DNA of 51,935 nt from a virus. Taxonomy: Duplodnaviria; Caudoviricetes. Shown here piece by piece: positions 1 through 33,840 of the stretch. The stretch lies in IMG/VR virus record IMGVR_UViG_3300017705_000711, positions 1-51,935 of that record; one strand, written 5' to 3'. Numbering within the stretch: the stretch's first letter is position 1; every line of letters begins with the position of its first letter. The translations under genes and the position numbers were made by a program. A model generated the notes under the pieces. It had not been told where the DNA came from, made no database searches, and saw only the letters and a program-made list of their open reading frames with translations.

Positions 1-894
1 CGTAAGTTCCGTGCGCTTTGGACTCTCGAAGCTGCTCAGGACCTGCGTGCGTACCACAACTTGGACCTTGAGCGTGAATTGACTGACTTGCTTGGCAAGG
101 AAGTTTCTTTGGAAATTGACCGTGAACTTTTAGAAGATATCCGTGGGCTTGCTTATGACTGGACTGCCAATGATGGCTGGAACCGTGATATGCTTTCTTT
201 GGGTAACTCTAACCGTTTCCCTGATGATGGCACTGGTAACTTTAACCCATCTGGTTTTTACTACGATTTGAATCAAGATACTCATGCTGACGTTTTAGGC
301 ACTAACCCTGCTGGTACTCGTAGAACTGCTGGTAACGTTTTCTTAGTTGATTTCGCTACTTCGGCTCTTGGTCTTGACCCACGTCACGTTGGTCAGGTAT
401 ATGCCAACTTGGTTGCAGTCCTAAACTTCGCTTCGCAAGACATCTACAAAACTACTTATCGTGGTGCTGGTAACTGGATTGTTACCTCTCCGATGGTAGC
501 TGCTATCCTTTCTTCGGCTTCTAAGCTTGAAGGGGGTGTGCGTCAAGGTGAATTCGACGGTCAGTTAGGTGCTAATATCCAATACAAAGGTAAGCTAATG
601 GGTCAGTTTGACGTTTATGTCGACCCACTTTGGCCGGAGGACGAAATCCTCATGGGTTACAAAGGCTCGTCTCCAATGGATTCTGGTTATATTTATTCTC
701 CATACATTCCGTTGCAGATGCTTCCAACCATTACCGACCCTGATACGTTCCAACCACGTAAAGGCTTGCTCACTCGCTACGGCAAAACAGCTTTATCACC
801 TGAGTCTCGCTTCTACAGAGTTATCCGTCTAATGGGTATTAATTCTAACTTTATGCAGCAGCCGTTCGCGACTGTAAGTAACAGTTCTGTCTAA
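1..894 (+). CDS. gp23: T4-like major capsid protein (gp23), 5'-truncated by the window edge
   Basis: Frame open from base 1 (RKFRALWTLEAAQDLRAYHNLDLERELTDLLGKEVSLEIDRE) and C-terminal GYIYSPYIPL...DPDTFQPRKGLLTRYG match gp23 hallmarks. Confidence 0.95.
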   Translation, partial: RKFRALWTLEAAQDLRAYHNLDLERELTDLLGKEVSLEIDRELLEDIRGLAYDWTANDGWNRDMLSLGNSNRFPDDGTGNFNPSGFYYDLNQDTHADVLGTNPAGTRRTAGNVFLVDFATSALGLDPRHVGQVYANLVAVLNFASQDIYKTTYRGAGNWIVTSPMVAAILSSASKLEGGVRQGEFDGQLGANIQYKGKLMGQFDVYVDPLWPEDEILMGYKGSSPMDSGYIYSPYIPLQMLPTITDPDTFQPRKGLLTRYGKTALSPESRFYRVIRLMGINSNFMQQPFATVSNSSV

Positions 895-917
895 CACAAG
901 TTAGAATAAACTGAATA

Positions 918-952
918 AAGAAGCCTATCCTTTTTACGAGGGTAGGCTTCTT
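918..952 (+). terminator. Stem-loop after the capsid gene, probable intrinsic terminator
   Basis: aagaagcctatcct / agggtaggcttctt 14-bp inverted repeat with one G-U pair; weak U tail. Confidence 0.65.
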
Positions 953-975
953 GCATTCCTATATAATGTGTAACT

Positions 976-1854
976 ATGTCTGCTTACCAACCAATTACCA
1001 AGTTCGGAAATACGTTCGCCCATAGAAAGGGGGTTTCGTACGATGCTTCGGCGTTTTCGGAAACCTTAGGGGACATCCAGTACGACTCTCTCAATAGAAG
1101 GCTTTTTGCCGAGCAAGTGGAGTTTAATAGGTTTTATACAATCATTAAAGATTTTATTAAAGCTAGACTGGGACACCCTGTAGTTCGTGTAGAGCTCTCA
1201 GACTTTCAAATCTTGACAGCAGTCGATGAGGCTATTGCAAAATTAGATTACCACGCCCCCGACTGGTGTCTACAATTTATGACGTTTCAAACTAAATTTG
1301 GTGAGGGTCTTTATGAACTCCCACAGTTTGTAATGAATAATTTCCGATACGCAGCTTATAAGAAAACCCTTCTATCCGTCGCTAGACAATCGAATACTTT
1401 AGAAAACGATTTCTTTATTAAGTACTTCCAAGAAAACTTCCTATTCAATCAGTTGGATATCGGTGAGTTCCTTTTGATGAAGATGCAACTAGAACAGATT
1501 AGAAAGGTTTTGAGTCGCGAAGGTACTTGGAGTGTAGTAAATGGTAAATATTTAGCAGTTTGGCCGATTCCCCAAGATGAAGCTGACCAAGAAGAAGTTG
1601 CTGTAGAATTTAAAGCGTTGGATACTGATACGTTACACCCTTACTTTGTTGGCTGGATTCAAAGATTTGCCACCGCGGTATGTAAAATAATCCTAGGTCA
1701 GATTCGAGGTAAGTTTGCACAACTACCGTCCCCTCAAGGAGGAGCTACGCTTAACGGACCCGCGTTGATTCAGGAAGGCACTGCCGAACAAGAAAAATTG
1801 ATTCAAGAGCTTTTAACCGAAATAGAGGAACCTCCTGTGTTTACAACATTCTAA
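976..1854 (+). CDS. gp13: Neck protein, gp13-like
   Basis: IKDFIKARLGHPVVRVELSDFQI and C-terminal GQIRGKF..PSPQGGATLNG..L typical of T4 gp13. Confidence 0.85.
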   Translation: MSAYQPITKFGNTFAHRKGVSYDASAFSETLGDIQYDSLNRRLFAEQVEFNRFYTIIKDFIKARLGHPVVRVELSDFQILTAVDEAIAKLDYHAPDWCLQFMTFQTKFGEGLYELPQFVMNNFRYAAYKKTLLSVARQSNTLENDFFIKYFQENFLFNQLDIGEFLLMKMQLEQIRKVLSREGTWSVVNGKYLAVWPIPQDEADQEEVAVEFKALDTDTLHPYFVGWIQRFATAVCKIILGQIRGKFAQLPSPQGGATLNGPALIQEGTAEQEKLIQELLTEIEEPPVFTTF

Positions 1855-2519
1855 TGGATAGCATTCTCTACTCAAAGATTCAGAAAGATATCAAATCTTA
1901 CGACGAATCACACCCAGCAACCACGGACTTTTATAGGAGCTACACTCAGTCTTTACTAGACCGTCTTATTATTGAAGTTGTGGACGATGAAGACAAAAGA
2001 TATAAAGTCCCTGTTATATATGCTAACCCGGAACGTGCGATAGCTAAGGTAAAAGAAGACCGAAATTTAAAACTTCCTTTAATTTCTATTGCAATTGGAG
2101 ATATTGAGGAGAATTTAAAAGCTAGACGACCTGATTTACAGCTCACGCACTATAAGTTTTTTGATGTGGAAAAGCAACGAGCTTACCGTGTTATCAAGAA
2201 AGCCTCAAAAGCAATTTCTTTACAATTTCAGCTTACTTTTTGGTCCAAGTACACGGAAGACATGAACCAAATGGTTGAAACTCTGCAAATGTTATTTCAA
2301 CCATCTTTAGCTTTACCCACCGCTCACGAAAAAGAAAATAAAGCTTTTTTGTTGGATATTTTAGATATGTCCTCCGTCCAGGCGGGAGATAAACAGGACC
2401 GAACGCTGCGGAAAAGAGCTACAATTAGGGTCGAATGTTACATTCCAGGAAGGGAGTACCTGTACTCAAACACAGGCAGAATCAAAGAATTTATTAATAC
2501 TGAAATTGAATCCAAATAA
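1854..2519 (+). CDS. gp15: Tail completion / sheath stabiliser, gp15-like
   Basis: KVPVIYANPER, LPLISI, DMNQMVETLQMLFQP motifs; position between neck and sheath genes. Confidence 0.75.
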   Translation: MDSILYSKIQKDIKSYDESHPATTDFYRSYTQSLLDRLIIEVVDDEDKRYKVPVIYANPERAIAKVKEDRNLKLPLISIAIGDIEENLKARRPDLQLTHYKFFDVEKQRAYRVIKKASKAISLQFQLTFWSKYTEDMNQMVETLQMLFQPSLALPTAHEKENKAFLLDILDMSSVQAGDKQDRTLRKRATIRVECYIPGREYLYSNTGRIKEFINTEIESK

Positions 2520-2554
2520 ATCTTGAAAAAAATACTATAATACTAGATTGGCGC

Positions 2555-2573
2555 CTCCTAAATAAGGTAGGAG
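2555..2573 (+). promoter_or_regulatory. Putative late promoter (CTAAATA) inside a hairpin that covers the Shine-Dalgarno
   Basis: ctccta-aataagg-taggag; resembles T4 late TATAAATA; AGGAG 9 nt upstream of ATG 2583. Confidence 0.5.
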
Positions 2574-2582
2574 AAATTTAGT

Positions 2583-2846
2583 ATGCCAACCTCTAAAAAG
2601 CCCGCAAAAAGTACAAAACGCGCCAAGACACCGTCTAGCGCTCGTACTCCTGTGCGCGAAAGAAAATATAGACTTTGTAATACTAGCTGCTCAGACTACG
2701 AATTAATCGTAGCGGACAAAGGCAGAATCCAACATGTTTGGATGACTCCCAATAAGACAATCGAAGTCCCTCTCGCACCCCTAACACCACAGGTGCTTGA
2801 GTTTCAAAGACGGCACATGCTGTCAGTCACTGAAGTCCATATTTAA
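2583..2846 (+). CDS. Hypothetical protein with basic N-terminus
   Basis: 87-aa ORF with AGGAG SD, directly ahead of the sheath gene. Confidence 0.75.
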   Translation: MPTSKKPAKSTKRAKTPSSARTPVRERKYRLCNTSCSDYELIVADKGRIQHVWMTPNKTIEVPLAPLTPQVLEFQRRHMLSVTEVHI

Positions 2847-2852
2847 TTTATT

Positions 2853-5249
2853 ATGCCTACCTACAATAGCCCCGGAGTTTACACTAGTGAGAATGATTTC
2901 TCTAATTTCGACCCTGCGTCAAGCCCAACTACCCCTGGTATTGTTGGTTTTGCTTCTCAAGGTCCTGTCGATAAGCCTATCCTTATCACCAATACAGTAG
3001 ACCTAGAAAGGTACTTTGGTACCCCTACTGAGGTTACTGGAGGTCAAGGGCTTTTAGCTGCGTACGAAATCATGAGGGAAACTAACCAACTTCAGTTTGT
3101 ACGCGCCCAAACTACAGCAGCGGCAAATGCTGAATGTGATTTGCTAATAGGAGCACTTCCAATGGTTGTTGCTGGAACTTCAGCGACTTACACACAATAC
3201 AGAACCCCTAACGTATTCAATACTGCAATGACTGGTAGTACTGCTAGTGGTTCGGCACACTTTATCGTTCAGGTTTATGATTCCAATGGAACAGCTACAA
3301 CAACTAAGCCTTACTTTTTATCGGTTTCCCACCCTAGTGGTGTAGATGTTGTGGTTTCAGGCTTCCAAAAGACCCTTTCTGATAACCCTGATTTTGTGGT
3401 TGAAAAACTTGACAACAGCTACTTGGCATTTGTAGGTCAGCATGCAGGAACATCTGCAAAAATCGAAGTAAGCGCTTTCTGTCCTCGTATTGAGACTACG
3501 GACGTTTTTTCAACAACTCAACTTTCAGGGCATGGGGCTATTGGAGGTGGGGGAAATCTACTGTCTAAGACAGATTCCGGTACCTACATTCAATTTGACG
3601 GAACTAAGATAGGCGTTAAAAACATGACACTCGGAGCCGACTCCAAACCTGGCTTGATAGACGGAACTGATATTGTGGCTGACACCGGCATGGATGTTAC
3701 AGGTATGATGTTCGTAAGCGCTATGTTTTACGACTCTGGCAATATCTATCCGTCCAACGCGCTTTCAGAAGTGTCCGCAACAAGCGCAATAGGTCAAGCG
3801 TACACACAAACCGCACCAGCAAATACTGGGTTGGGAGGCTCAGGGGTAACTCTAAGTCGTAATGAAGGCGCTGGCGGAGCGTACACGGTTCGAGCTCTGC
3901 ACCCTGGACTAGGCAATAATGCCGCTAGTTCTTATAACGGGAACGCTAACGTTATTAGAGGTCTTTCCGTGAAAGTCTCACCTCTCGGTAAGTACCAACA
4001 AGCTATTACCCTTTTACGTAACGGCGGCGTTGCAGAGTCTTACAAGGTTCAACTAATAGAAGATACTACTAACTCAGGTATTCCAACTTGGCCGAGTTCT
4101 GTTATTAACTCTAAGACTTACGGGAATGGGGAAACATCTGATTACATATACGGAGCTTTTGAGGACGTCGACGGTGATACCGCAGTAACGTGGACTGCCC
4201 CCACTACCGTAACATCCCCTGCTTACGTTAACTCTTTTGCTGCAGCCGGTAAAGATGAAGGTCAAATAGCCTATACTAGATTCTTTAAGTTTGTTGAAAA
4301 AACTTACGACATGTCTGGAGGGCTAAACGGAGACGCCGCTGACCACGGTGGAGATTTAACGCACTCCGAAGTAATTAACGCACTCGCAGGTCCTACAGGA
4401 ACATCTCGAGGTGTTAAAGCCTTTATGGCTGATAATGTTGAGGTGGACATTGTAGCGATTCCTGGAGTTCATGTTCAGGATGTACAAGCAGCAGCTATTG
4501 ACGCTGCCGCGAATACAGGTAAGTTCATTTATGTTACCTCTCCGCCAGAAGGGCTATCCCCACAGGAGGCAGTTGACTGGCATAACGGGAACTACCCAGG
4601 GAGAACCGTTTCTATAAACAGCTCTTACACCGCTTTATATTACCCTCATTGTAAATTCTTTAATACCTGGACAGGAGTAGACCAATACGCAGACCCCGCC
4701 ATTTTTGCTGTTAAGGCGATGGCTAAAGCAGACAACATTGCTGATGTGTGGGTTGCTACTGCGGGTGTTGGTAGAGGTAAAATCTCCCCTACGGTTAAAG
4801 AGCTTGAACGAGAGTTAAACCAAGGAGACCGTGATTATGTTTACGGGGGCGGGAACGCCCTTAACCCGATTGTTAACTTCCGTAGACACGGAATATGCAT
4901 CTGGGGTCAGAGAACCACACAAAGAACCGCGACAGCGTTAGACCGTATTAATGTTCGACGGCTAGCAATCGCAATCAGGCAGAAAGTTTCAGACCTAGGC
5001 ATGCCTTTCGTGTTTGAACCTAACGACCCAATTACCTGGTCACTAATCAAAGGAGAAGTAGAACCTATGTTAGAAGATATTTTAGCTAGACGAGGAATTC
5101 GCTCCTTCCGAGTATTCTGTGATGAAACCACAAATACACCTCTTCGAATTGATAGAGGTGAGTTGTGGATTAAGGTTGAAGTTGTTCCAACAAAATCTGC
5201 CGAATCGCTCATATTTGAGATTAACGTCTTAGGTCAAGAAGAAGCCTAA
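2853..5249 (+). CDS. gp18: Contractile tail sheath protein
   Basis: N-terminal SPGVYTSEND, GPVDKPILIT; C-terminal NPIVNF..GICIWGQRT, DRINVRRL, FVFEPND, CDETTNTP. Confidence 0.96.
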   Translation: MPTYNSPGVYTSENDFSNFDPASSPTTPGIVGFASQGPVDKPILITNTVDLERYFGTPTEVTGGQGLLAAYEIMRETNQLQFVRAQTTAAANAECDLLIGALPMVVAGTSATYTQYRTPNVFNTAMTGSTASGSAHFIVQVYDSNGTATTTKPYFLSVSHPSGVDVVVSGFQKTLSDNPDFVVEKLDNSYLAFVGQHAGTSAKIEVSAFCPRIETTDVFSTTQLSGHGAIGGGGNLLSKTDSGTYIQFDGTKIGVKNMTLGADSKPGLIDGTDIVADTGMDVTGMMFVSAMFYDSGNIYPSNALSEVSATSAIGQAYTQTAPANTGLGGSGVTLSRNEGAGGAYTVRALHPGLGNNAASSYNGNANVIRGLSVKVSPLGKYQQAITLLRNGGVAESYKVQLIEDTTNSGIPTWPSSVINSKTYGNGETSDYIYGAFEDVDGDTAVTWTAPTTVTSPAYVNSFAAAGKDEGQIAYTRFFKFVEKTYDMSGGLNGDAADHGGDLTHSEVINALAGPTGTSRGVKAFMADNVEVDIVAIPGVHVQDVQAAAIDAAANTGKFIYVTSPPEGLSPQEAVDWHNGNYPGRTVSINSSYTALYYPHCKFFNTWTGVDQYADPAIFAVKAMAKADNIADVWVATAGVGRGKISPTVKELERELNQGDRDYVYGGGNALNPIVNFRRHGICIWGQRTTQRTATALDRINVRRLAIAIRQKVSDLGMPFVFEPNDPITWSLIKGEVEPMLEDILARRGIRSFRVFCDETTNTPLRIDRGELWIKVEVVPTKSAESLIFEINVLGQEEA

Positions 5250-5267
5250 ATAATATAGAACAAACAA

Positions 5268-5849
5268 ATGGCATTCAACAATAACAAAATCACTAACGAA
5301 TATTTCGACCAATTTAGAAACGGTGGAGATGAGCGTCTCAATACTTTATCACAACAATACGATTCCCTTAGAACGTACAGTTGGCTGGTATCTATTGAAG
5401 GGCTTGGCAATAGCGCCGCAGGGGACAACCCAAGGGACCAAACTAACGCTTTAACTTTAGCTTGTAAACAAATCGGGGCAATTGGTTTTTCTGTAGAAGA
5501 TATTGCCGTCGACCGTGTTAATGATAAGTACTACTACCCTGGAAAATACTCCGCTGATGAAACTACATTCACGTTTGATAACCTGATTAAAGGTGACGCA
5601 GCGACCGCCTTGTTTGGTTGGATTTCGGAAACGTATGACCCTACAACTGGTACCTTAGGAACTTCTAGTATGAAGCGTAAAATTGTTATTACTCAATTGG
5701 ACGCAGACCACACCCCGAAGATGACTATAACCTTGTACGGAGCATACGCTAAGTTTTACCGTTTAGCTGAGTTGAATTACAGTACTAACGACTTTCATAC
5801 GATTGAGGTTGGAGTACGTTACGATTTCGCTGTACAAGAAAGGTTGTAA
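5268..5849 (+). CDS. gp19: Tail tube protein, gp19-like
   Basis: Follows sheath; YYPGK...TFTFD, ITQLD, LYGAY, ELNYS, VRYD fit T4-like tube family. Confidence 0.85.
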   Translation: MAFNNNKITNEYFDQFRNGGDERLNTLSQQYDSLRTYSWLVSIEGLGNSAAGDNPRDQTNALTLACKQIGAIGFSVEDIAVDRVNDKYYYPGKYSADETTFTFDNLIKGDAATALFGWISETYDPTTGTLGTSSMKRKIVITQLDADHTPKMTITLYGAYAKFYRLAELNYSTNDFHTIEVGVRYDFAVQERL

Positions 5850-5923: not shown

Positions 5924-8341
5924 ATGAAACTTAACAGCAAATCACTTAACATTTTCGAAACATACCTGGACACAGTCCTTTCGGAAGCTGGCACATCGGG
6001 AAAACACAACCGGTGGTTCTATGGCGCCGAACAGGGGTCTATAGACACCCTGGCAACGTTTGCTAGAACACCAGATGGGTTTAATACACCAGAATCGGCA
6101 AAGCAAAAAACCGCAAATGGCGCCGCTTGGAGGGACTACGCCACTGACCAAGGTGGGGAACAGGGAGGGGAGCACAAAGTTTACTGGGTAAGCCTTTCAG
6201 GTCCACAAAGTGCAAGCGCGAGCACGTTGTTAGCTGCTATTGCAAAATGGAAGCCTGAAGAGGAGCCCGATGCTGAACAGTTTAAGAAAGAGGGGGAGGC
6301 GTTGCCTGCTCAGCAGGAATTCGACGCGGAACAGCAAGCACTCGCGGAGGAAGAAGCTGAAGTACAGCAGGAGAGGCAAACTGACCGCCAAACAGACGAA
6401 GAAACTGTAGAAAAGGTGGCTAACATTTTTGCTGAACGGTTAGAGTTAGATTCAAATAAAGCACGTAAGATGGCAGAGACTCTCGACGCTAATTGTAAAA
6501 AACCTACCGACCACAAGTTTGCAAAAGATTATAGAGCTCTCCTAGCCTATACCAGAACAGATGAGCACAAATTTGGACTTCCAGGAGAAGCCAACGCGGA
6601 AATGATGGATGCTTTTGTCGACCTGCTTGAAATTACGAAACATATTAAGCGAGACTCAGAAGGTGAGTATGTGTTAGAGGAAGATTTGACAGAACGACAA
6701 AAAGATATCCTAACAAGTGTTAGAGCAAGAGGGCAAAAAGGTCAGAACGGGGTCTACGTAGGATATGACGGCGATAGAGCCCATAGAGTTTTTCCAGACA
6801 TATCCCAAGCCCTCGTCGATATCCAAGCTTCTTTGGCTGGGCAAGCCTCTGAAGAAGCTCAGGAAGCTGCTGGTATTGCTTCCCCGGACCTCTTCAAATA
6901 TGGTGTATCTGTTAGAGGTTCAGAGCCTATTGGTGAGGCATTAGGAGGGGTAAAGCTTAGGAAAAAGGATGGAAGCGAGGAGTTAATGTTAAAGCTTACC
7001 TCTGCGGCAAAAACAACTGCCTCTAATAAATCTATAGGGGAGTTTTCCGAGAAGTCCTGGGTTGGCGTAGTTAATTTTATGACAACAGGTGCTGACGATG
7101 GAACCTTACAAGAGGGGATTCAATCCTTTGCTCAACACTGCCAACTTATGGCTCAAGTTGCAGCCTCTAACCCTGACAAACTCCGGAAACAGCTCCCGGA
7201 TGTCCCTTTTACCGCACAGGAGGAAGCCGAGCTTGAATGGTTTGATAGAGCCAATGATTTTTATAACACCCATGGACAGCCAAATGAGCTCGTTAAGGCT
7301 GTTTTTATGCAGAATGCAATGAACCTAGCAAGATTACTTCATCACGCTCAGGTGGCTCCTATAAGCGCCAGGGAACCTTCAGGGGACGAGCCTCGCGGAA
7401 ACGACTTAAAGTTTGGAGTTAAACGAGATATTGTGTTTGATTTCGCAAACAACAGTGATGCCGTAAAGTTTTGTAAATCATTAGGGTTAGGTCCTGAGTA
7501 CGCACATGAGACAGAGGTAGACCTTTCTTTAAAACAACTAACGAAGACAACAGGAAAAGTAAACAACGAAGGAGCAACTCTCCCCGTAGCTTTAGGTCAA
7601 AGCACAAACTCATCTAAGCAGCAACAGTTTGAAAACCATAAGGAAAGTACTTATGACAAAATTCGTGGGATGAATCTGCCAAGTGGACGCAGTGAAAAGC
7701 TTATAACAGCCATGGACAAATCCCGAGACTGGGACACGGAACAATGGTCTACCATTTTTTCTGCCCTACACCCCAAAAACGGGAAAGTGCAAGGGTCTAT
7801 GAGTACTCTTTTTAATAGTGTGTTAGATAAAAACTGCCCACCAACACCTGAAGGGTTGAAAAGGCGTGAGGGGTTTAATCAGTTGTGGAAGGATTACAAG
7901 GCTTCCATGGAGGGTTCCATAAACCCAACTAAAGAATCATGGGTTTTAGCGCAAAAACTATTTGGCGCGTTAAAACATCATAGGTCTGAAACAAACGTGC
8001 AATACAGGCATGGTTCTTCCTTGAACGAGACAATGGGGTGCCTAACATCTTCTCACTCAGAAGCTTTAGTAAGGATGCACCAGGATAAAGTAGCCGTGTA
8101 TGGTGCTGATGGGGCTCTTGCTGATACAATAGACGCGTGTATGAATGGTAATTTGGTCTCAAAACCTAATGGAGGATTTTACATCACGGACGACTCAGGA
8201 AATCGCATAAGCGAGACTAGTTATGTTGTTGCTGTAGGTTCAAATGGTCAACCTTTTATAAGGCTTCGAGGGGGTTTTGAAGGGAAACGCTTCAATGAAG
8301 AATCCTTTCATGTGCCTTCAGATATGAAACCTACTCCATAA
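5924..8341 (+). CDS. Large hypothetical protein (805 aa), possibly a virion internal protein
   Basis: Long ORF after tail genes; acidic Q/E-rich linker; no family recognised. Confidence 0.8.
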   Translation: MKLNSKSLNIFETYLDTVLSEAGTSGKHNRWFYGAEQGSIDTLATFARTPDGFNTPESAKQKTANGAAWRDYATDQGGEQGGEHKVYWVSLSGPQSASASTLLAAIAKWKPEEEPDAEQFKKEGEALPAQQEFDAEQQALAEEEAEVQQERQTDRQTDEETVEKVANIFAERLELDSNKARKMAETLDANCKKPTDHKFAKDYRALLAYTRTDEHKFGLPGEANAEMMDAFVDLLEITKHIKRDSEGEYVLEEDLTERQKDILTSVRARGQKGQNGVYVGYDGDRAHRVFPDISQALVDIQASLAGQASEEAQEAAGIASPDLFKYGVSVRGSEPIGEALGGVKLRKKDGSEELMLKLTSAAKTTASNKSIGEFSEKSWVGVVNFMTTGADDGTLQEGIQSFAQHCQLMAQVAASNPDKLRKQLPDVPFTAQEEAELEWFDRANDFYNTHGQPNELVKAVFMQNAMNLARLLHHAQVAPISAREPSGDEPRGNDLKFGVKRDIVFDFANNSDAVKFCKSLGLGPEYAHETEVDLSLKQLTKTTGKVNNEGATLPVALGQSTNSSKQQQFENHKESTYDKIRGMNLPSGRSEKLITAMDKSRDWDTEQWSTIFSALHPKNGKVQGSMSTLFNSVLDKNCPPTPEGLKRREGFNQLWKDYKASMEGSINPTKESWVLAQKLFGALKHHRSETNVQYRHGSSLNETMGCLTSSHSEALVRMHQDKVAVYGADGALADTIDACMNGNLVSKPNGGFYITDDSGNRISETSYVVAVGSNGQPFIRLRGGFEGKRFNEESFHVPSDMKPTP

Positions 8342-8837
8342 AGTTTGTAGTATCCAAAGACAAAAAGTCCGTAAGCTTGTATATGTAGTATTCCTTGTTT
8401 ACAACCACGACGGTCCCTAGGTTATAAGGTTTACTCGTAATAACGAATGGTTTGTGTCTAGTTTTTTTGTAAACCACCAACCAATCTCTATCCGCTTTTT
8501 CAGCATCCCGTTTTGCTTGAGCTATAAACTTGTATAAATCACTCTTAGGTTTAAAAATGTCTTCGAAGGTTACATCGTACCCTGATTTACATTCTAAAAT
8601 AAACTTAAAATTTTGTGGAGTTATTAGGTCACCGTGTACTTTAATATGTTGTGGTAATTCGTGAGTAGTAGCAAAAGCTCCCGACCCCGGTGACCGACAA
8701 AAATCTGTTGTGTTAAATCGAGTGTTTAGAAGTTTAGCGATTTCTCTTTCAAACGCGTTACCTTTTCTACGGCTATTAACCCTTTTCTTTTTTTTGAAGT
8801 CGCCGTGGTTCAAAATATCATTTAGCTTATCACCCAT
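8331..8837 (-). CDS. PD-(D/E)XK nuclease, Holliday junction resolvase-like
   Basis: NSRRKGNAFEREIAK...SGA...GDLITP...ILECK. Confidence 0.85.
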   Translation of the reverse strand: MGDKLNDILNHGDFKKKKRVNSRRKGNAFEREIAKLLNTRFNTTDFCRSPGSGAFATTHELPQHIKVHGDLITPQNFKFILECKSGYDVTFEDIFKPKSDLYKFIAQAKRDAEKADRDWLVVYKKTRHKPFVITSKPYNLGTVVVVNKEYYIYKLTDFLSLDTTNFME

Positions 8838-9181: not shown

Positions 9182-9479
9182 AATCACTTCAGAAAAGGAC
9201 CTTTCAGGGTTGTACCTTAAAAAGAAAAAGGGGACGTTTCATATCCTCTACACTTCTCTTTGGGACTTCACTTGTAAAAGGCTTCAAAAAAAGGTGGAGA
9301 AATGGTCTAAGCAGGAAGGGAATGAGACGCTTTACGTCATCAATAGTTGGGACACCCCGGCAGCCTTCTCTATGTTTATGATTACTTCTACACCTTCTTT
9401 GGTGTCGATTAAGAAAGGAAAGGTCCGGGTCAACGTGGAATTCCCTACGATTTATCGTTTTTTTGATTCCGAGGGGTAG
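9165..9479 (+). CDS. Thioredoxin-fold protein lacking CxxC
   Basis: ILYTSLWDFTC at the WCxxC position, LYVINSWD, ITSTPSLV cis-Pro motif; ATG at 9165. Confidence 0.55.
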   Translation: MRQIVKITSEKDLSGLYLKKKKGTFHILYTSLWDFTCKRLQKKVEKWSKQEGNETLYVINSWDTPAAFSMFMITSTPSLVSIKKGKVRVNVEFPTIYRFFDSEG

Positions 9480-9843
9480 CGTACTCCTCGGAGAACCTCT
9501 CCTCCATCATAGTTTGATACTTTTGAATCTTTTGGCGGTACTTTTTATTCTTAGTAAAGATTAGCTTTAAGTTATTTACAATAACTGTAGTAAAATAGTT
9601 GAACGCCGCGCCATTATCTGGGTTAAAATTCTTTAATGTTCTGAATGCCAACAAAAAACACTCTTGCTTGGCATCGTCAAAATCAACATTAAACTTAAAG
9701 GACATTAAAATGTTAGTAATTAACAAGTCCAGAAGCTCTATCAATCTCGCCTCATGTTTTTTAGGGTTTTTTAGGTACCCCTTGATTACCTTTTCAAACT
9801 CGGCATTGTCAATGTAATGGGTTTGTTTTTTCTTTTTAACCAT
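9445..9843 (-). CDS. gp55: Late-transcription sigma factor, gp55-like
   Basis: HYIDNAEF, DDAKQEC, NFNPD..AFNYFTTVIVN resemble T4 gp55; ATG at 9843 preceded by TATAAT. Confidence 0.8.
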   Translation of the reverse strand: MVKKKKQTHYIDNAEFEKVIKGYLKNPKKHEARLIELLDLLITNILMSFKFNVDFDDAKQECFLLAFRTLKNFNPDNGAAFNYFTTVIVNNLKLIFTKNKKYRQKIQKYQTMMEERFSEEYATPRNQKNDKS

Positions 9844-9858
9844 AACCAATTATAGCCC

Positions 9859-10839
9859 ATGAGTTTAGATAGTTTACTTAATTCTTTTGAAAATGATGAA
9901 AAAAAACAAGTACATCGCGAAGATGTTGGGGAGGAGAGTATTGTATTTATACACGACTCGTACCGTCAAAAGTACGGCAAGACTTACAACTTCGACGATG
10001 AAGAGTATGGTATACTGTCTACCTTACTTGCTAAGACCAATATCCCGCCTGGCTCTTACCAGTTTATACCTGCAATTGGTGGGTTTAATATGCGCGAGGA
10101 TGATGTAACCACGGATATCTTACATGTCCACAGGGAAAGTTTAGAGGAAGACCTTAAAAATATTGAGCCTACTTTAATTATCCCCTTAGGAAACTTAGCG
10201 TTTAAAACCCTTACTAAAAAGTCCGGAGTGTCGTCAAAGAGAGGTAAAGAGTTTCATATAGACATTAACGGAAAGGTCATTCCCGTCGTCCCTACGCTCC
10301 ATCCGTTTTCCTTGTATTCTGAGCCCAAGTTGCGGAGATTGTTCGTCCAGGACGTCGACAACGCGTATGACAAGTTCGTGCTTAATGTAAACAAGTTCGA
10401 CTCCAGCCCATACGAGTTAGTAACTGAGGTAGACAGGTTTGAGGATTTGATTAAGGAGTCTTTAACCTGTGATGCCGTGGCTATAGACATAGAAACCAAT
10501 GGCTTGGATTACAAACTAGGAAAGATTATGACGTTAGGGTTTTCGTTTGGAGAACGCCAAGGGTTCGTCATTCCTATATATCATAGTGAGTCTCAGTTTA
10601 TAGAAAAGGACATAGAACGCATTAAAGGTTTAACCCAAGAACTCATCTCAGATGAGAACGTCGTCAAAATTTTTCATAATTCAAAATTTGATATAAAGTT
10701 TTTGCTTAATTGGGGAATCTCCGACTTTAATAACATAGAGGATACGCAAATTATGCATGCCCTCGTAGATGAGAACTTACCACACTCCTTAATGGACTTG
10801 GTAAAACAATATTTCCCTCATGAATTAGAAAAGTTTTAA
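9859..10839 (+). CDS. Family A DNA polymerase part 1: UDG-like domain plus ExoI/ExoII of the 3'-5' exonuclease
   Basis: IIPLGNLA...VVPTLHP (UDG fold); AIDIETNGLD (ExoI); FHNSKFD (ExoII); DTQIMHALVDE..HSL. Confidence 0.85.
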   Translation: MSLDSLLNSFENDEKKQVHREDVGEESIVFIHDSYRQKYGKTYNFDDEEYGILSTLLAKTNIPPGSYQFIPAIGGFNMREDDVTTDILHVHRESLEEDLKNIEPTLIIPLGNLAFKTLTKKSGVSSKRGKEFHIDINGKVIPVVPTLHPFSLYSEPKLRRLFVQDVDNAYDKFVLNVNKFDSSPYELVTEVDRFEDLIKESLTCDAVAIDIETNGLDYKLGKIMTLGFSFGERQGFVIPIYHSESQFIEKDIERIKGLTQELISDENVVKIFHNSKFDIKFLLNWGISDFNNIEDTQIMHALVDENLPHSLMDLVKQYFPHELEKF

Positions 10840-11312
10840 TGCTAACAGTAACTAACGGAGCGAAGCACGATTGGGGCAGTATGCCTTTGGATGAAATGGC
10901 AATTGGTAATGCTATGGATTGTGATTTTACATTACGATTCTGGCACATCCTACGTAAAGAAATGCGCGAGAAGCAACTGAATCATGTATACGACAATCTC
11001 CTCAAAGACATCGCACTGGAACTCGCAAATGTTGAAAACTTTGGAATCTCTGTGGACACCGAGTACCTAGATGAGTTAGAGGTTAAACTAGAGAAAGAGA
11101 TTGGCATTCTCGAGAAAGAGTTGCAGGAGTTATCACCTATTAAAGAGGTAAACGTCAACTCTAACGTAGATTTACAACGAATTTTATTTACAGAGGACGA
11201 AGGGTTAAACCTTTACCCTGTAACCTTTACCAAGAAAACCAAAAAACCATCAGTGACTGACGCTGACCTCCAATTAATCTTGGAGGAAATAGACAAAACG
11301 CTAGCAGGATGA
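10839..11312 (+). CDS. Family A DNA polymerase part 2: ExoIII plus thumb
   Basis: GNAMDCDFTLRFW (ExoIII-like), LANVENFGISVD, NVNSNVDLQRILF, TKKTKKPSVT. Confidence 0.85.
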   Translation: MLTVTNGAKHDWGSMPLDEMAIGNAMDCDFTLRFWHILRKEMREKQLNHVYDNLLKDIALELANVENFGISVDTEYLDELEVKLEKEIGILEKELQELSPIKEVNVNSNVDLQRILFTEDEGLNLYPVTFTKKTKKPSVTDADLQLILEEIDKTLAG

Positions 11313-12424
11313 AGAAAGAAATATACCAAAAAGTAATCGCTGGGAAGGAAAAAGCAGAACTACAAGAAGCCAAAGAGTTTATTGAAAAGCTTGTTGAGTA
11401 CAAGAAAAAATGTAAGCAACATAAAACATATGTTAAAGGTGTTAAGGAAGCAATTGCGTACAACGAGGAGGACCGCATTTACTCAAGTTATAATTTCTCA
11501 CAAACTGTTACGGGGAGACTTAGTTGCTCTACATATGTGTGCGGTCCAAAGATGAAGAAAGGGGTTTCCTTTCACACGCTACCACGACCTACGGAGGACA
11601 ATGTAAATATTAGACGGCTTATGAAAGCCGACGGGGATAAGGCATTTATCGCTGCGGACTTTTCCCAAGCTGAACTACGGGTTTTGGCGCAATGCTGCAA
11701 AGATAAAAATTTAATTAAGGCATTCACGTCAGGTCAAGACCTCCATAGCTTTACCGCGTCTTTGGTGTTCGGTAAAAAAGTTGAAGACGTCACGAAGGCT
11801 GAGCGACAGATTGCGAAAAGCGTCAGCTTCCTTATCGTATACGGCGGGGGTCCTAACAAGTTGGCACAGCAAATTAATAAACCCGTTTCTTACTGTAAGG
11901 GCATTTTCAAAGCGTATCAAGACTCATTTCCAAATGTGTTTAAATGGATTAGTGTTATACATAAAAGCGTCAAAGAGAACGGTCATGCCGTTAGCCTTTT
12001 CGGCAGGCGCCGTAACCTGCCAAATGTTAATAGCCCTATTAAACGATTCCAGTTTAGGGCTTTGAGGCAAGGTTTAAACTTCGTTATCCAAAGTTCAGCT
12101 TCTGACCTTATGCTACACTCAATCACGCGCCTATGTGAAGACTTAAAGAAGGCGGGGATTGAGTACGATTTACTAGCTACTGTTCACGACTCCGTGGAGT
12201 TGCAATGTGAAATCAAGGATGTAGAGAGGTGTGTTGAGATTATGCGAGAGAGCCTAACCTCTACCTCTGATTTAAAATCCTACTATGGCTTGGATTTTGT
12301 AGTACCTTTTGAGGTGGACATCGAGGTTGGCACTTCTTTCGGAGACGGAATAGAAGTAGATTTTGATTCTGCGGGAGGTTCTCTAAATACAAGTGAAATT
12401 ATAAATTATGTCCAAAACAACTAG
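11309..12424 (+). CDS. polA: Family A DNA polymerase part 3: palm and fingers
   Basis: TVTGRLS; motif A ADFSQAELR; motif B RQIAKSVSFLIVYG; NFVIQSSASD; motif C VHDS. Confidence 0.95.
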   Translation: MKKEIYQKVIAGKEKAELQEAKEFIEKLVEYKKKCKQHKTYVKGVKEAIAYNEEDRIYSSYNFSQTVTGRLSCSTYVCGPKMKKGVSFHTLPRPTEDNVNIRRLMKADGDKAFIAADFSQAELRVLAQCCKDKNLIKAFTSGQDLHSFTASLVFGKKVEDVTKAERQIAKSVSFLIVYGGGPNKLAQQINKPVSYCKGIFKAYQDSFPNVFKWISVIHKSVKENGHAVSLFGRRRNLPNVNSPIKRFQFRALRQGLNFVIQSSASDLMLHSITRLCEDLKKAGIEYDLLATVHDSVELQCEIKDVERCVEIMRESLTSTSDLKSYYGLDFVVPFEVDIEVGTSFGDGIEVDFDSAGGSLNTSEIINYVQNN

Positions 12425-13427
12425 AGCTGTACTCCTTACGGACCTTCATTTACGAAGCGACTATGTTCCTGGGTATCTTGAAGCCCAAATGTCGACTTTA
12501 ATAAAATTAGTTAACCAAAAACCTACTGACGTCGTTATTATTAATGGAGACATCTTCCACAAGAGAAATCCACGTGGAGCCGAATTGCTTGCATTCCGTA
12601 CGCTTTTAGAGAGTTTTAAATGCTCAAAAATCTACATTAACAGGGGAAACCACGATACAGTAGCCAAAGACGGGTCTACCAACACTACGTTATCTCTGTA
12701 CGGTGATATCGCTACTGTTTTTTCAGAAGTAGGTTCTGCACATATTGGAGGGGTCGATTTTGATTTCATTCCCCATTTCGAAGATGAACGTCAAATTGTA
12801 CGTGCGGTCAAGTCCTCAAAAAACCACCTTTTTGGGCATTTTGGTTTTGATGGTTGTGTAGCTAATGGCAATTATAAGTATGATTCCTACCTTAAACGGT
12901 CTCATTTTCCTAAAGGTAAATTATCCTTTTTGGGGCACATACACAAACCACAACAACATAAAAACCTCTACATCCTAGGGACACAATATTCTACATCGTA
13001 CGGGGAAGCCAATGCCCAGAAGTACATTCATGAATTAATAATAAGGGACGGTAAAGTAGATGTCGTTAAAAAGCCAATTGATTTCGGCATCCGGCATATC
13101 GTTTCTCGAATTGATGAGCTTCCACTAATGGCGAGCAGGTTTAGGTTTGATAGTTTTTTTACTATTTTAAGATTAAAGCTAGATTATTTGGATTCCTCTA
13201 CAGAGCAAGCACTCCGTGATGATGTTTTAGAGAAGTACCCTTTAAACCATTTAGAGTTTGCCTTTGACGATATCCTCCCAAAGTTTGATTCACAATACAC
13301 GCCTTCTGGGGACGTATTTCGTATAGACGATGATATTATTTCGAAGTACTTAAATGAAGCTGATACGGTGTTTAGCCATAAAGAGCTTAGAGGTGCACTA
13401 GAGGAGATTAGAAATCATGAAAATTAA
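12408..13427 (+). CDS. gp47: Mre11/SbcD-like recombination nuclease (gp47)
   Basis: DLH, GDIFH, GNHD, GH, GHIH metallophosphoesterase motifs; next to Rad50-like gene. Confidence 0.9.
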   Translation: MSKTTRAVLLTDLHLRSDYVPGYLEAQMSTLIKLVNQKPTDVVIINGDIFHKRNPRGAELLAFRTLLESFKCSKIYINRGNHDTVAKDGSTNTTLSLYGDIATVFSEVGSAHIGGVDFDFIPHFEDERQIVRAVKSSKNHLFGHFGFDGCVANGNYKYDSYLKRSHFPKGKLSFLGHIHKPQQHKNLYILGTQYSTSYGEANAQKYIHELIIRDGKVDVVKKPIDFGIRHIVSRIDELPLMASRFRFDSFFTILRLKLDYLDSSTEQALRDDVLEKYPLNHLEFAFDDILPKFDSQYTPSGDVFRIDDDIISKYLNEADTVFSHKELRGALEEIRNHEN

Positions 13428-15024
13428 TAAGATTAGAATAAAAAACTTTTTATCGATTAAAGATGCGGAGATTGATTTTGAATCCTATAGCAATATTGTC
13501 CGTATCATAGGTATTAACAAAGACACCAAACCCAACAGTTCTAATGGGGCAGGGAAAAGCTCTGTGATAGAAGCTATAGTCTTTTCACTGTTTGGGAAAA
13601 CTATACGAAAGACTACAGATAAAAGTTTAAAAAACCACTACACGAAAGGGAAATGTGAGGTTGAGATTGTCGTAAACGACAACATTACTATCAACCGGGT
13701 TAAAAAACCGCCAATGCTTACTGTATCTGTGGACGGGGAAAACGTAACTCAAGATTCAATACAAGCCACCCAGAAGTACCTTGATAAGATTTTAAACACA
13801 AACTTTTCGGTATTTCTTGCTTCAATGGTGTTTGGGCAATCAAACAAAATGAACTTCCTTACTGCTTCCGCGGAAGAAAAGAGAAATATTATCCAAAGCT
13901 TTTTGGACATTGGGGATGTATTCCAGTACCGAAAGGCTATCAAATCGAAAAAGGCTAAGGCATATTCTAATAAGAAGATTGCAGAGACGTTATGTTCTGA
14001 AGTGTTGTCCAAGAAAGAAAAGCTCGAAAAACAAATCAAAGAATCAAAAACAAACAAAAAGGCAGCAAAGGTTTTGATGGACTCGAAAGTTGCTAAAGAG
14101 TTTATAAAACATACCATTTCAGAACTACAAGAAAACGAACAATTAAGATACGCCGCAGGTGTAGAGTATGAGTCCGCAAGCCATTCATTAAGCAGGACAA
14201 CAACGCGTATGTTTGAAGTTCGCGAAAAGTTAAAAAGTTTTAAAATTTCCGAATGTGAGTTTTGTGGGGAAGCTCCAACAAAAGAAAGAAGTTTAATCTC
14301 TGGATGGCAAACAGAGCTATCTCTTTTAGGGGAGGAGCTCATATCAAAACAAGGATTCATTAAAAAGCAAGGACAATTGCTCGAGAACTTTGGTCCTGTT
14401 ATATCCCCTGAGGACTTCGATTTGTTTGAGAAATATAAAACATTCGATACCGAGTATAAAATATTAACAGCCCAAAGGCGCGAACATACCAAGTTTTTAA
14501 AGAAGCATCAGAAGCAAGTGGAGATATCCCAAAGATATTATGACATGATGAGGTTTTGGGAGCAAGCATTTTCTGAACAAGGGCTTATAAGGTTCGTTAT
14601 TAGAAACATTCTTTCGTTTTTTAATGACCGAGTAAATTACTATCTCAAGTTTTTAAGTTCTTCAAATTTTTCTGTAACTTTTGATGAAACTTTGAAGGAA
14701 AAAATCTATAATAAAGGGACCCTAACTTTCTTCGATGCTCTCTCCGGAGGGGAAAAAAGGAAAATTTCTGTAGCCATCATGTTAGGTCTTAACGACTTAC
14801 TATTATTGTCGGGCAAAGAGAGGTCTAACCTTATCTTTTTTGATGAGGTTGCCGATTCTCTAGACGAAGGTGGTGTGAAGGGTTTATACGAGTTAGTTAT
14901 GGATATTTCAAACACTAAAAAAGTGTTCGTTATAACCCATAACGACTATCTAACATCGCTACTTGAAGACGAGTCTGAAAATCTTCATGTAACCAAAAAA
15001 GCAAACATAACCACAATAAAATGA
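13417..15024 (+). CDS. gp46: Rad50/SbcC-like ATPase (gp46)
   Basis: NGAGKSS Walker A, CEFCG zinc hook, LSGGE signature, FFDEVADSLD, ITH. Confidence 0.93.
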   Translation: MKINKIRIKNFLSIKDAEIDFESYSNIVRIIGINKDTKPNSSNGAGKSSVIEAIVFSLFGKTIRKTTDKSLKNHYTKGKCEVEIVVNDNITINRVKKPPMLTVSVDGENVTQDSIQATQKYLDKILNTNFSVFLASMVFGQSNKMNFLTASAEEKRNIIQSFLDIGDVFQYRKAIKSKKAKAYSNKKIAETLCSEVLSKKEKLEKQIKESKTNKKAAKVLMDSKVAKEFIKHTISELQENEQLRYAAGVEYESASHSLSRTTTRMFEVREKLKSFKISECEFCGEAPTKERSLISGWQTELSLLGEELISKQGFIKKQGQLLENFGPVISPEDFDLFEKYKTFDTEYKILTAQRREHTKFLKKHQKQVEISQRYYDMMRFWEQAFSEQGLIRFVIRNILSFFNDRVNYYLKFLSSSNFSVTFDETLKEKIYNKGTLTFFDALSGGEKRKISVAIMLGLNDLLLLSGKERSNLIFFDEVADSLDEGGVKGLYELVMDISNTKKVFVITHNDYLTSLLEDESENLHVTKKANITTIK

Positions 15025-15326
15025 CACAAGAACAATTTAATTTAGAACCCATCGGAACCAATTTAGTGGTTCGTAGGGCTACCGTAGAGCTCACTTCAGA
15101 CTCAGGGATTATTATGCCTGATTCCGTAACTTCCCAAAAACTAAATGAGGGTGTTGTAATGGCGGTAGGAAAAGGCTCCCGCGATTCTAATGGAAATAGA
15201 GTCCCTTGTGACGTGGAAGTTGGAGATGAGATTTTGTGGGGGGATTACACCGGCAACGATATTGTCCGAGGTGAGGAAACTTTCTGTATTTTAGGCGAAG
15301 CTGACATTTTGGTCATTTTACGATAA
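15021..15326 (+). CDS. groES: Co-chaperonin GroES
   Basis: EPIG..LVVRR, SGIIMPD, GVVMAVGKG, VEVGDEIL..Y.G, EADIL. Confidence 0.92.
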   Translation: MTQEQFNLEPIGTNLVVRRATVELTSDSGIIMPDSVTSQKLNEGVVMAVGKGSRDSNGNRVPCDVEVGDEILWGDYTGNDIVRGEETFCILGEADILVILR

Positions 15327-17700: not shown

Positions 17701-18136
17701 AATTTTAAATAAAAGTGACAACCCTACTCCTGAGTATAAAAGCGAGGGAGCAGCAGGGTTTGATATTTCAATCAATGAAGAAGTGAATTTAACAGCCAGG
17801 GAAGCAAAACTGGTTGGTACTGGGCTGTATGTAATTATACCTAAGGGGTATGAAGGGCAGTTAAGGCTAAGAAGTTCTATGTACAAAACAAACATCATTA
17901 TGCCTAATGCCCCCGGCACTATAGACAGTGACTATAGAGGGGAGGTTAAAATCGCCCTTTTAAATACTAACCCTTATTGCTCCCGTAAAATTGAAAAAGG
18001 AGAAAGAGTTGCGCAAATGGTGATTAATAAGATTCCCGAGGTAGGCATAGAAGAAATTTCCGAAAAGGAGTTCAAAATGCCCCAAAATTTTACTATAAGA
18101 AATAGTAAAGGTTTTGGTTCTACAGGAAAAAATTAA
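17690..18136 (+). CDS. dut: Trimeric dUTPase
   Basis: AAGFDI, RSS, GTIDSDYRGE, GERVAQ, R..KGFGSTG. Confidence 0.96.
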   Translation: MQVKILNKSDNPTPEYKSEGAAGFDISINEEVNLTAREAKLVGTGLYVIIPKGYEGQLRLRSSMYKTNIIMPNAPGTIDSDYRGEVKIALLNTNPYCSRKIEKGERVAQMVINKIPEVGIEEISEKEFKMPQNFTIRNSKGFGSTGKN

Positions 18137-19413
18137 TGACATACTCATTTTCAGACAATATCCAGCGAGGGATAATCTATCTCGCAAAAAGCAACATTGA
18201 ATTTTTAGTACAGTGTGACCCTATTGTAAAAGGTACGTACTTCGAGTTCCCCCAACATCAACGTATGTGGGGAGTTCTTACCAACTACTACAAAACGTAC
18301 GGAACTCTCCCGACGGATGAGGCTATCTTAGAAGAAATTCGTCAGGTTAAAAACCAAAATGAGCTGATGTCCGATTATAAGGAAGAGCTGTCTAATATTA
18401 ACACGCTAGACGAAAGCTCCATCGATAATAGTCAGTATTACTTAGATAAAGCAGAGGAGTTTGCGCGAGAACAATCTTTAAAAGAAGCCATTCTTGAGTC
18501 TGTGGATTTTATAAAGAATAAACAATTTTCCAAAGTTGAAGATTCGATTAAGTCCGCTTTGTCTGTTTCTCGTAATGTAGACCTGGGGGTTGATTACTTT
18601 CTAGGTATTGGTGATAGATGGGCAAAACTTAAGGACCAAAAATTGGTACCTAAGTATAAAACCCCTTTCGACGCTATTAACACCTCCCTTGAGGGAGGAT
18701 TGTGTGGCAAAGAGCTGGCTATGGTAGTTGCACCTCCTGGCGTAGGCAAATCCCTGTTTCTAGCTAATCAGGCGGTAACGTCAGTTATTGACGGGCACGA
18801 CGTGTTGTACATTTCGTTAGAGATGTCCGAGGACAGAGTAGCTCAACGCCTAGACAGTATTTTTACTCGCATCAAACAAAAAGAATTGCCAAACAGAGTA
18901 CCCGATGTGGAATCCCGTATTGGGCAGATATCTAAAGCAACAAAGCTGGGGAGGTTAAGAATTAAAGAGTTCCCAACCAAAAGAGCGAGCGTCACACAGC
19001 TTAGAGCTTTTATTAATCAGCTCCAAAGCCACGAGGATTTTCATCCAAGTGTTGTGATTATCGATTACTTAGAGCTTATGTCTAGCGATACCAACAGTCC
19101 GGAGTACCAAAACCAAGAACGACAAGCACAAGAGCTTCGGGGGTTGGCAATTGAACTGAACTGTTTGGTGTGGACTGCCACCCAAACAAACAGAGAAGGT
19201 AAACGTGTTAAAATTATTACAGACGCTGAACTCGCAGATTCGTACGGAAAGACGAGAGTTTGTGATTTAGTTTTTTCTGTAAACCAAACTGAGGAGGAAT
19301 TCGATGAAGGATTAGCGCGCTTGTTTATTATTAAATCAAGAAATGGAAAAGCACGATTCATTATCCCTGCAAAAATAAACTACTCAACCTTAGTATTATC
19401 GGAGGGAGCATGA
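18136..19413 (+). CDS. gp41: Replicative DnaB-like helicase (gp41)
   Basis: APPGVGKS, ISLEMSE, IKEFPT, IIDY, WTATQTNR, KSRNG. Confidence 0.93.
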   Translation: MTYSFSDNIQRGIIYLAKSNIEFLVQCDPIVKGTYFEFPQHQRMWGVLTNYYKTYGTLPTDEAILEEIRQVKNQNELMSDYKEELSNINTLDESSIDNSQYYLDKAEEFAREQSLKEAILESVDFIKNKQFSKVEDSIKSALSVSRNVDLGVDYFLGIGDRWAKLKDQKLVPKYKTPFDAINTSLEGGLCGKELAMVVAPPGVGKSLFLANQAVTSVIDGHDVLYISLEMSEDRVAQRLDSIFTRIKQKELPNRVPDVESRIGQISKATKLGRLRIKEFPTKRASVTQLRAFINQLQSHEDFHPSVVIIDYLELMSSDTNSPEYQNQERQAQELRGLAIELNCLVWTATQTNREGKRVKIITDAELADSYGKTRVCDLVFSVNQTEEEFDEGLARLFIIKSRNGKARFIIPAKINYSTLVLSEGA

Positions 19414-19754
19414 CACCAAAAAAAGAATTATATAAACACCCTTTAACTGTTTACACGGGAATTAAAACATTTACTATCGCCCAGAAGTCTTTAGCTAAAG
19501 ACAGTCTGTATGGTTGTGTAGAATTCCCAAAAGCATTACTCACTATCGACCCAAACCAAAGTATTGAAGATTATAAAAGCACTTTGCTTCATGAAATTTG
19601 CCACATTGGTTATGAAATGTTCGGGCTTAACGACGACGATGAGATGCCTACGATAGGTAATGAGTACCTAACCACAGTAACCTCTAATATGATTTTTCAA
19701 TTAGCAGGATTAAACCCGGAATTATTCCAATACATTTTTAAAAGCAATGAGTGA
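19410..19754 (+). CDS. Small HEXXH metallopeptidase-like protein
   Basis: STLLHEICH followed by a downstream E. Confidence 0.6.
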   Translation: MTPKKELYKHPLTVYTGIKTFTIAQKSLAKDSLYGCVEFPKALLTIDPNQSIEDYKSTLLHEICHIGYEMFGLNDDDEMPTIGNEYLTTVTSNMIFQLAGLNPELFQYIFKSNE

Positions 19755-20187
19755 TATTCAAAACACATACGAAACTCTACCCTCAGAGTATTTAAGTCTT
19801 ACCAAATCATACCTATCGGTAGACGAGTCGTCTATGGATTTGGCAATCAAGCGCCACCCTTCAGTATACGCTTTCTTTGGCTCTGTCTTATCTTACGCCA
19901 AAAGAACTAGTGATGGGTTAAGCTCTAAGTTAGAAATGCTTGAAGCAAAGCATATGGAATTAAGACGAGCTGAGTTGGCAGGGAAAGGTACAAAAGCAAC
20001 ACAAGGAGCCTTGAACGCGTATGTTCTTACAGTTCAAGAACTTATAGACTTGCGCGAAGAACTTTTAGATTCCCAGCACAGGTACAACCTTGCTAGAAAC
20101 ATCGTAACCTCCTTGGACCATCAAAAAGATATGTTGGTACAAATGTCTGCAAATAAACGTGCAGAAGTGAGGCTTCACGAACTATAA
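19747..20187 (+). CDS. uvsY: Recombination mediator UvsY-like
   Basis: Helical ~146 aa, C-terminal LDHQKDMLVQMSANKRAE; sits before gp32. Confidence 0.6.
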   Translation: MSDIQNTYETLPSEYLSLTKSYLSVDESSMDLAIKRHPSVYAFFGSVLSYAKRTSDGLSSKLEMLEAKHMELRRAELAGKGTKATQGALNAYVLTVQELIDLREELLDSQHRYNLARNIVTSLDHQKDMLVQMSANKRAEVRLHEL

Positions 20188-25467: not shown

Positions 25468-25471
25468 AAAG

Positions 25472-30245: not shown

Positions 30246-30300
30246 AGTGTCTAGGTGATAAATATTTTACGTTAACATTTATTTCAAGGGTAAATACTGT

Positions 30301-30417
30301 ATGAACATCAAAAAACTGATTAAAAGGGGTCGCATTGCTGACCCTGCCGCTGTTGAAGAAGCTCCTGAAGCCAAAAAAGCTCCAAAAAAGAAAACTTCTA
30401 AGAAGAAAAGTAGTTAA
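30301..30417 (+). CDS. 38-aa lysine-rich peptide (not in the ORF track)
   Basis: MNIKKLIKRGRIADPAAVEEAPEAKKAPKKKTSKKKSS; TAAATA 4 nt upstream. Confidence 0.6.
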   Translation: MNIKKLIKRGRIADPAAVEEAPEAKKAPKKKTSKKKSS

Positions 30418-30448
30418 TACTTAAGCCTTGCCTTCTATAATAGAAGGT

Positions 30449-31856: not shown

Positions 31857-31901
31857 AACCTACCGAGTGACCCTGCTATATACTTTAGAGGATAAAAATA
31901 A

Positions 31902-33812: not shown

Positions 33813-33840
33813 TTTTTAATATCTTTTACTATAATAAATT

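Follow-up and report, generated by a model that had tools for sequence, protein, structure and literature searches.

The window, by which we mean the whole stretch of 51,935 nucleotides analysed here, comes from an uncultured marine T4-like phage; the virus record is linear, with a completeness of about 48%. Its plus strand carries three consecutive genes that together cover the parts of a family A DNA polymerase (PolA). Gene A (9859..10839, 326 aa) encodes a degenerate family-4 UDG-like fold and most of the 3'-5' exonuclease domain, gene B (10839..11312, 157 aa) the ExoIII helix and the thumb as far as its tip, ending in a C-terminal helical extension, and gene C (11309..12424, 371 aa) an N-terminal helical extension, the rest of the thumb, the palm and the fingers. 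The genes overlap by TAATG at junction 1 (10837..10841, plus strand), which cuts the exonuclease domain between ExoII and ExoIII, and by ATGA at junction 2 (11309..11312, plus strand), a cut at the turn that leads from the helix of the thumb tip into the long descending one. The earlier note on this DNA had claimed three separate ORFs joined in this manner, and their coordinates and lengths proved correct, as did the domain assignment: PHROG 17 is matched consecutively and almost without gaps by A (555-785), B (794-930) and C (926-1240), and the Pfam DNA_pol_A profile is shared between B (positions 2-64) and C (positions 67-380). Other listed plus-strand gene pairs of the window overlap in the same way, nine by 1 nt and five by 4 nt, as the note had also stated; the coupling of A, B and C is thus ordinary for this genome. 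Shine-Dalgarno-like words were found at 1 of 63 A starts and 20 of 67 B starts. The further claim that no gap of intron or intein size separates the pieces is borne out, since no Rfam intron was detected in the window or in six loci (seven sources) and the distance from the DT motif after ExoII to the ExoIII Tyr position, 54 residues in A+B, compares with a median of 55 in single-chain relatives (35 of 57 proteins parsed), so that no sequence is missing at the first cut.

A UDG fold is present at the N-terminus of gene A according to both profile match and Foldseek. The Pfam UDG match (residues 84-156) scores 22.1 bits, under the cut-off of 24.3, within a fold spanning about residues 25-175; PDB profile matches were to family-4 UDG and Klenow, with 4zbx at E 4e-8, and Foldseek with the gene A model returned UdgX and family-4 UDG, the top match being 9qhs, of the SP15-like group. 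The catalytic motif of this domain is lost as judged by pattern: motif A, which we take to be G-E-x-P, occurs in none of 63 stand-alone A proteins versus 23 of 69 longer ones. Residues 1-180 of the window's A contain no Cys, and the N-terminal CxxC is kept in 52 of the 63 stand-alone proteins; the Fe-S-type cysteines of the UDG-like domain (window 9859-10400) are lost in the window's sub-lineage and kept by the majority of the distant split relatives (P0143-P0181). The domain would be non-catalytic and probably serve in gripping DNA or as a structural element, a processivity role for such UDG-like domains being a published hypothesis (PMC3201878, PMC10201439). The exonuclease part matches DNA_pol_A_exo1 over residues 185-324 (profile 1-133 of 173), with ExoI residues D210 and E212 and ExoII residue D278; in the close groups the ExoI D/E pair was parsed in 65 of 67 and the ExoII Asp in 62 of 67. 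Gene A ends at a conserved aromatic or hydrophobic position after the helix that follows ExoII, its last residue being L, F or I in 44 of 63 stand-alone proteins, and its last 20 codons have a pN/pS of 0.01. This last residue may correspond to F473 of Klenow, whose stacking on the 3' base is described in PMC8867116. Model confidence is low at A 300-326 and at B 1-34 when the chains are folded apart, which fits a mutual dependence of the two and also shallow alignments.

Aligned to single-chain homologues, gene B starts in the loop after the end position of A. Its W12 aligns with Klenow chain residue 163, and D27 would presumably fall on Klenow D501 if the alignment is gapless. D27 aligns with the ExoIII Asp of the single-chain homologues, which is present in 60 of 60 parsed close groups, and the four DEDDy carboxylates are all found in the window (D210, E212 and D278 of A, D27 of B). 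On the same helix, G23 replaces the ExoIII Tyr: the position is Gly in 107 of 115 rows of the split lineage, six rows being unparsed and two showing other letters, whereas 52 of 69 longer relatives have Tyr there. The Y180A substitution of the matching Tyr in Tt72 PolA left 4% of exonuclease activity (PMC9324360), so proofreading may be weak in the split lineage; in the T4 and T7 polymerases the ExoIII Tyr is directed away from the site (PMC8867116). The statement that the catalytic motifs are intact therefore stands for the exonuclease carboxylates and fails for the ExoIII Tyr and for the UDG catalytic motif.

Gene C is a family A DNA polymerase by profile (PF00476 DNA_pol_A, 250 bits against a cut-off of 34.3) and by its motifs, namely D117 in motif A, R166, K170, F174 and Y178 in motif B, and H293 and D294 in motif C. 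These residues are invariant in eight of eight sequences, and the protein aligns to Bst polymerase. Its N-terminal helical extension measures about 19 aa, and C as a stand-alone 371-aa protein is represented by seven clusters.

Shared breakpoints in related contigs, named as a check in the earlier note, were found for both cuts, some relatives carrying whole genes in the gaps. The comparison rested on 235 sequences, made up of the window and of loci from overlapping scans in which contigs recur; 197 of them span A|B and form 67 groups at 95% identity over B. The position of the A|B cut is identical in all 67 close groups and no A-B fusion occurs in any of them. The two genes are separated by -1, +1 or +2 nt or by 162-3732 nt, and most groups carry whole unrelated genes in the gap; among the inserted ORFs are 39 of glutamine synthetase, 24 of a small unknown type, eight of ThyX, four of a PD-(D/E)XK nuclease and four of saccharopine dehydrogenase. 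One locus holds a 659-aa protein without Pfam match in this slot, beside glutamine synthetase and ThyX (L024:3549-5528). The slot glutamine synthetase starts with Met-Ile-Thr-Val (L001:4480-4500, L010:4536-4555) and gene B with Met-Leu-Thr-Val (window 10839-10860); such nearly identical starts could, via short homology, aid the gain and loss of inserts.

The first cut extends far beyond these close relatives. An A profile run against a library at 50% identity gave 10,813 matches, the best 150 of which comprise 63 stand-alone A proteins with the same end, 69 proteins that continue past it and 18 partial ones, the first continuing protein ranking 62nd. The 63 stand-alone proteins, 25-58% identical to the window's A, fall with it on one side of a branch opposite 46 longer proteins (FastTree, support 99). 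The simplest reading of this tree is that one ancient fission made the A|B cut, and that the three-gene split is old and, at A|B, lineage-wide. A search for longer forms, aimed at fused A+B among close relatives, gave 11 matches, none above 31% identity, and the best 120 matches of a B+C profile were all 327-519 aa long. By BLAST against catalogued phages, C reaches about 32% identity and A at most about 30%; no close catalogued phage was found.

The second cut has a more complex distribution. In close relatives 215 loci span B|C, and their 74 groups divide into 62 with B and C fused only, 11 split and one mixed, the last owing to a single error-like contig (L028/L168); with B+C as a single chain in 62 of 74 groups, three chains are not required. 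The 11 split groups share a GG-ATGA site, with C identity down to 66%. A scan for distant A confirmed at least 415 loci, and among the best 80, loci of a sister group, which were examined, 68 have three genes and eight have no B in reach, a contig end cuts two, and the last two are one with B by itself and one in which B and C are fused; L315, the one distant locus listed in full, is syntenic with the window. The distant B|C offsets, with starts taken as the nearest in-frame calls, are -4, -8, -11, -14, -17, -20, -23, -26, -44, +14, +16 and +537. In L277 and L278, B and C are separated by a nucleotide-kinase-like gene of 184 aa (L277:9493-10047), whose P-mevalo_kinase and DNMK matches are weak and under cut-off. 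In the single fused distant locus, L294, one extra base at B|C relative to L292 joins the genes while both extensions are kept, which is either a very recent re-fusion or an error of one contig.

In a model of a natural B+C fusion (pLDDT 73), junction 2 falls at a two-residue turn, residues 150-151, where three-gene forms add 22-35 residues. Compared between close and distant three-gene groups, the C extensions are alike, with a mean score of 19.4, where fused forms reach -6.3 over those positions; for the B tails the corresponding scores are 18.6 and -3.3. The core sequence instead unites the close three-gene forms with fused forms, and this pattern as a whole favours one old cut followed by re-fusion. 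The thumb spacing of 68-70 in fused forms, close to the 66-69 of two single-chain outgroups, counts against re-fusion. When the junction columns are removed, the window's group nests among fused forms, so that several re-fusions would be needed; an AU test marginally rejects the union of all three-gene forms in a single clade (p-AU 0.04), and the 58 fused groups form one clade in one of two trees. On these alignments and trees we lean slightly towards an old cut with later re-fusion; an independent re-split seems rather doubtful, and recombination of the junction a little more so.

The gene content around the locus is largely of T4 type. Directly downstream of C, and syntenic in relatives, lies an SbcD/SbcC-like (gp47/gp46) pair (12408..15024), followed by a DnaB/gp41-like helicase (18136-19413) and a gp32-like SSB (20297-21049); the virion genes gp23, gp15, sheath and gp19 stand at 61..5849, all of these on the plus strand and assigned by Pfam or PHROG. 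UvsX completes the T4-type set of the window. As partners of the polymerase, gp41, gp32 and UvsY had been proposed: the first two have counterparts in the helicase and the SSB, and UvsY could not be confirmed, its candidate being a 146-aa plus-strand gene (19747-20187) that matches unnamed PHROGs only, with no Pfam or PDB match. Five long relatives (linear, 82-100% estimated completeness, one of the two-gene form) each contain one PolA match, plus B. Family B polymerase (PF00136) gave no match in any of the five, nor in any of six searched; with one PolA match and no family B match, the split enzyme is the only polymerase detected. Matches to gp43, gp45 and gp44 were likewise lacking in four long relatives, three of them at least 90% complete, with a positive T4 control, at a sensitivity that could miss a distant clamp.

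A, B and C are three conserved genes of a UDG-fused family A polymerase, and taken together these data suggest that their products form a working multi-chain enzyme, a reading to which we give a probability of roughly 0.85. The three products would likely be made one after another by translational coupling and assemble 1:1:1 into one replicative enzyme. Of the exonuclease carboxylates, three would come from chain A and the fourth from the ExoIII helix of chain B, which would make docking of A on B a requirement for proofreading; the thumb would be put together from B and C by means of their two added terminal helices, and chain C would bear the polymerase site. Prediction of the A+B+C complex gave 0.87 with B as partner and 0.81 in a control in which chain C was replaced, the two interfaces being inseparable in this three-chain design, and the scores weigh neither for nor against binding. 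The first cut would have a single origin in the distant past and have become a slot for accessory genes, and the second would have opened or closed more than once. A bolder version, for which we would give clearly less than even odds, is that of a large and ancient clamp-less T4-type lineage with a three-subunit PolA whose proofreading site exists solely across a subunit interface, where the change from Tyr to Gly makes room for the conserved C-terminus of A, fidelity is tunable by the amount of chain A and the thumb junction has been re-fused repeatedly. If true, this junction would offer a natural, reversible fission-fusion series in a replicase.

The best surviving alternative, which we hold to be unlikely, is that B+C is a working polymerase and the two-chain exonuclease weak or dead, A having mainly a structural role or one in processivity, or being a nuclease that binds loosely. 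It draws on the replacement of the ExoIII Tyr by Gly across the lineage, given the weight of this residue in Tt72 PolA, and on the absence of UDG motif A from every stand-alone A. Against it stand the retention of the carboxylates in nearly all close groups parsed, the extreme constraint on the end of A and the orientation of the Tyr in the T4 and T7 enzymes. Such a scheme alters the function of A and leaves the three-gene structure untouched. On the conserved residues, proofreading by the split enzyme, whatever its strength, is likely, and a substantially active two-chain exonuclease is reasonably probable.

It is very improbable that a programmed frameshift or a ribosomal bypass in translation, or else splicing, joins the pieces into one chain. 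Both junctions of the window are -1 shifts without spacer, and the GG-ATGA at B|C, kept in all 11 close split groups, recalls what we take to be the take-off codon of T4 gene 60; however, relatives carry whole genes inside both gaps, and the adjacent forms vary in frame at A|B as at B|C, so recoding is unlikely and neither a frameshift nor a bypass of the gene-60 type was retained. Moreover, the junction DNA has no conserved slippery site or landing codon, and selection on the C extension acts in the frame of C, starting at the Met of C. Splicing lacks an Rfam intron, and interruption by an intron or intein was rejected on the same ground as well as on the normal A+B spacing and on the metabolic and variable nature of the inserted genes.

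Three separately made chains thus remain the preferred reading, and the pieces behave as genes under constraint. Among 8-9 close three-gene genotypes, pN/pS was 0.15 for A, 0.12 for B and 0.10 for C, with 0.15 for both the B tail and the C extension and a range of 0.10-0.17 over all pieces; these are raw ratios with synonymous sites near saturation, and by them all pieces are under purifying selection. The check for indels over the junctions, made on assembled contigs and leaving out contig records with fewer than 31 letters on one side of a junction, revealed none in the contigs that cross them. A contig from run X1, perhaps the window's source and hence not counted as independent, covers both junctions unchanged; junction 1 also reads the same in a contig from a second study (X4 record 28, depth 2.7), and at junction 2 two contigs from related phages (X2 record 4, X4 record 6) differ by substitutions but show no gap, while X5 gave no cover of the junctions. 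Assembly error or decay of a former single gene, conceivable for an uncultured contig in a data set where error-like shifts do occur (as in the contig behind L028/L168), is refuted by cut sites that are the same in proteins with identity as low as 25-35%, as well as being at odds with the selection and with the crossing contigs. Sequence comparison accordingly confirms A, B and C as separate genes rather than errors.

Divided polymerases are known from other phages. Some T4-like Aeromonas phages have a split family B polymerase, gp43A/B. PhiKZ also has separately encoded family B chains, DNAP-N and DNAP-C, whose assembly has been solved (PMC13648687); it differs from the window in family and in having two chains instead of three genes. 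The closest parallel is that of the S-SBP1/S-TIP37-like (clade B) T7-like cyanophages, whose PolA is split into two overlapping genes (PMC10201439, PMC12695635) and for which, in S-SBP1, reassembly was predicted and frameshifting argued against (Czernecki 2023, PMC10201439). Family A, gene fission and overlapping genes are common to both cases; as described in these sources, the cyanophages are podoviruses with two genes, for the exo and pol domains, and no UDG domain, whereas the window's lineage has three genes cut before ExoIII and in the thumb, a UDG-like domain, a T4-type myovirus setting and accessory genes in the gaps. The same UDG-exo-pol order is found in the UDG-PolAs of SPO1-like phages, SP15-like phages (YerA41, phiLo) and N4-like cluster 17 (PMC10201439, PMC13697223), which these papers describe as single chains, in contrast to the split lineage; the N4-like enzymes have lost the catalytic UDG residues, as has the window's lineage. 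The CCPol-MP system recalls chain B in that its polymerase chain opens with the last exonuclease helices, with partner binding predicted there (PMC10201439). According to the same source CCPol has no complementary exonuclease gene and binds MP, and it is a primase of mobile elements, whereas in the window the missing exonuclease part is the neighbouring gene A.

A three-gene layout of PolA was not found in the literature searched, including PMC12619734, PMC8115048 and bioRxiv 2024.04.26.591309, a search that covered main texts and few subscription papers; the supplements of PMC10201439 list more UDG-PolAs and may bear on novelty. A polymerase of the window's type does not appear either in the consulted portions of the Moraphage and oxygen-minimum-zone papers. 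Family A polymerases are normally single-chain, and the one published split found in these texts separates exo from pol in two genes. With an active site shared by chains, a widespread three-gene form would show where the PolA fold tolerates cuts and would provide natural split points for engineering, and the three-chain, two-chain and single-chain forms constitute a matched set for the effects of splitting on fidelity and processivity. The lineage also pairs T4-type virions with a PolA, with no clamp detected. Annotation pipelines and surveys based on the polA marker would take A, B and C for fragments.

The surroundings of the locus present several other features. Upstream, the minus strand encodes a RusA-like PD-(D/E)XK nuclease (8331-8837) and a small sigma-70-region-2 protein (9445-9849), a gene order that is the same in L315, the sigma-like gene being found in L166 too. 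GTDB gave a single match (L181), to a contig of 6 kb that is assigned to a bin of uncultured Planctomycetales and may be phage DNA placed in the wrong bin; as a host hint it is too little for a host call. The window further contains GroES (15021-15326), one tRNA gene (38036-38109) and the ATPase subunit of an ATP-dependent protease, ClpX-like by reading (32535-33812). Right after gp32, the region 21050-36224 groups glycosyltransferases, an FkbM methyltransferase, nucleotide-sugar epimerases and RmlA/RmlC-like genes, a cluster that could modify DNA or the virion.
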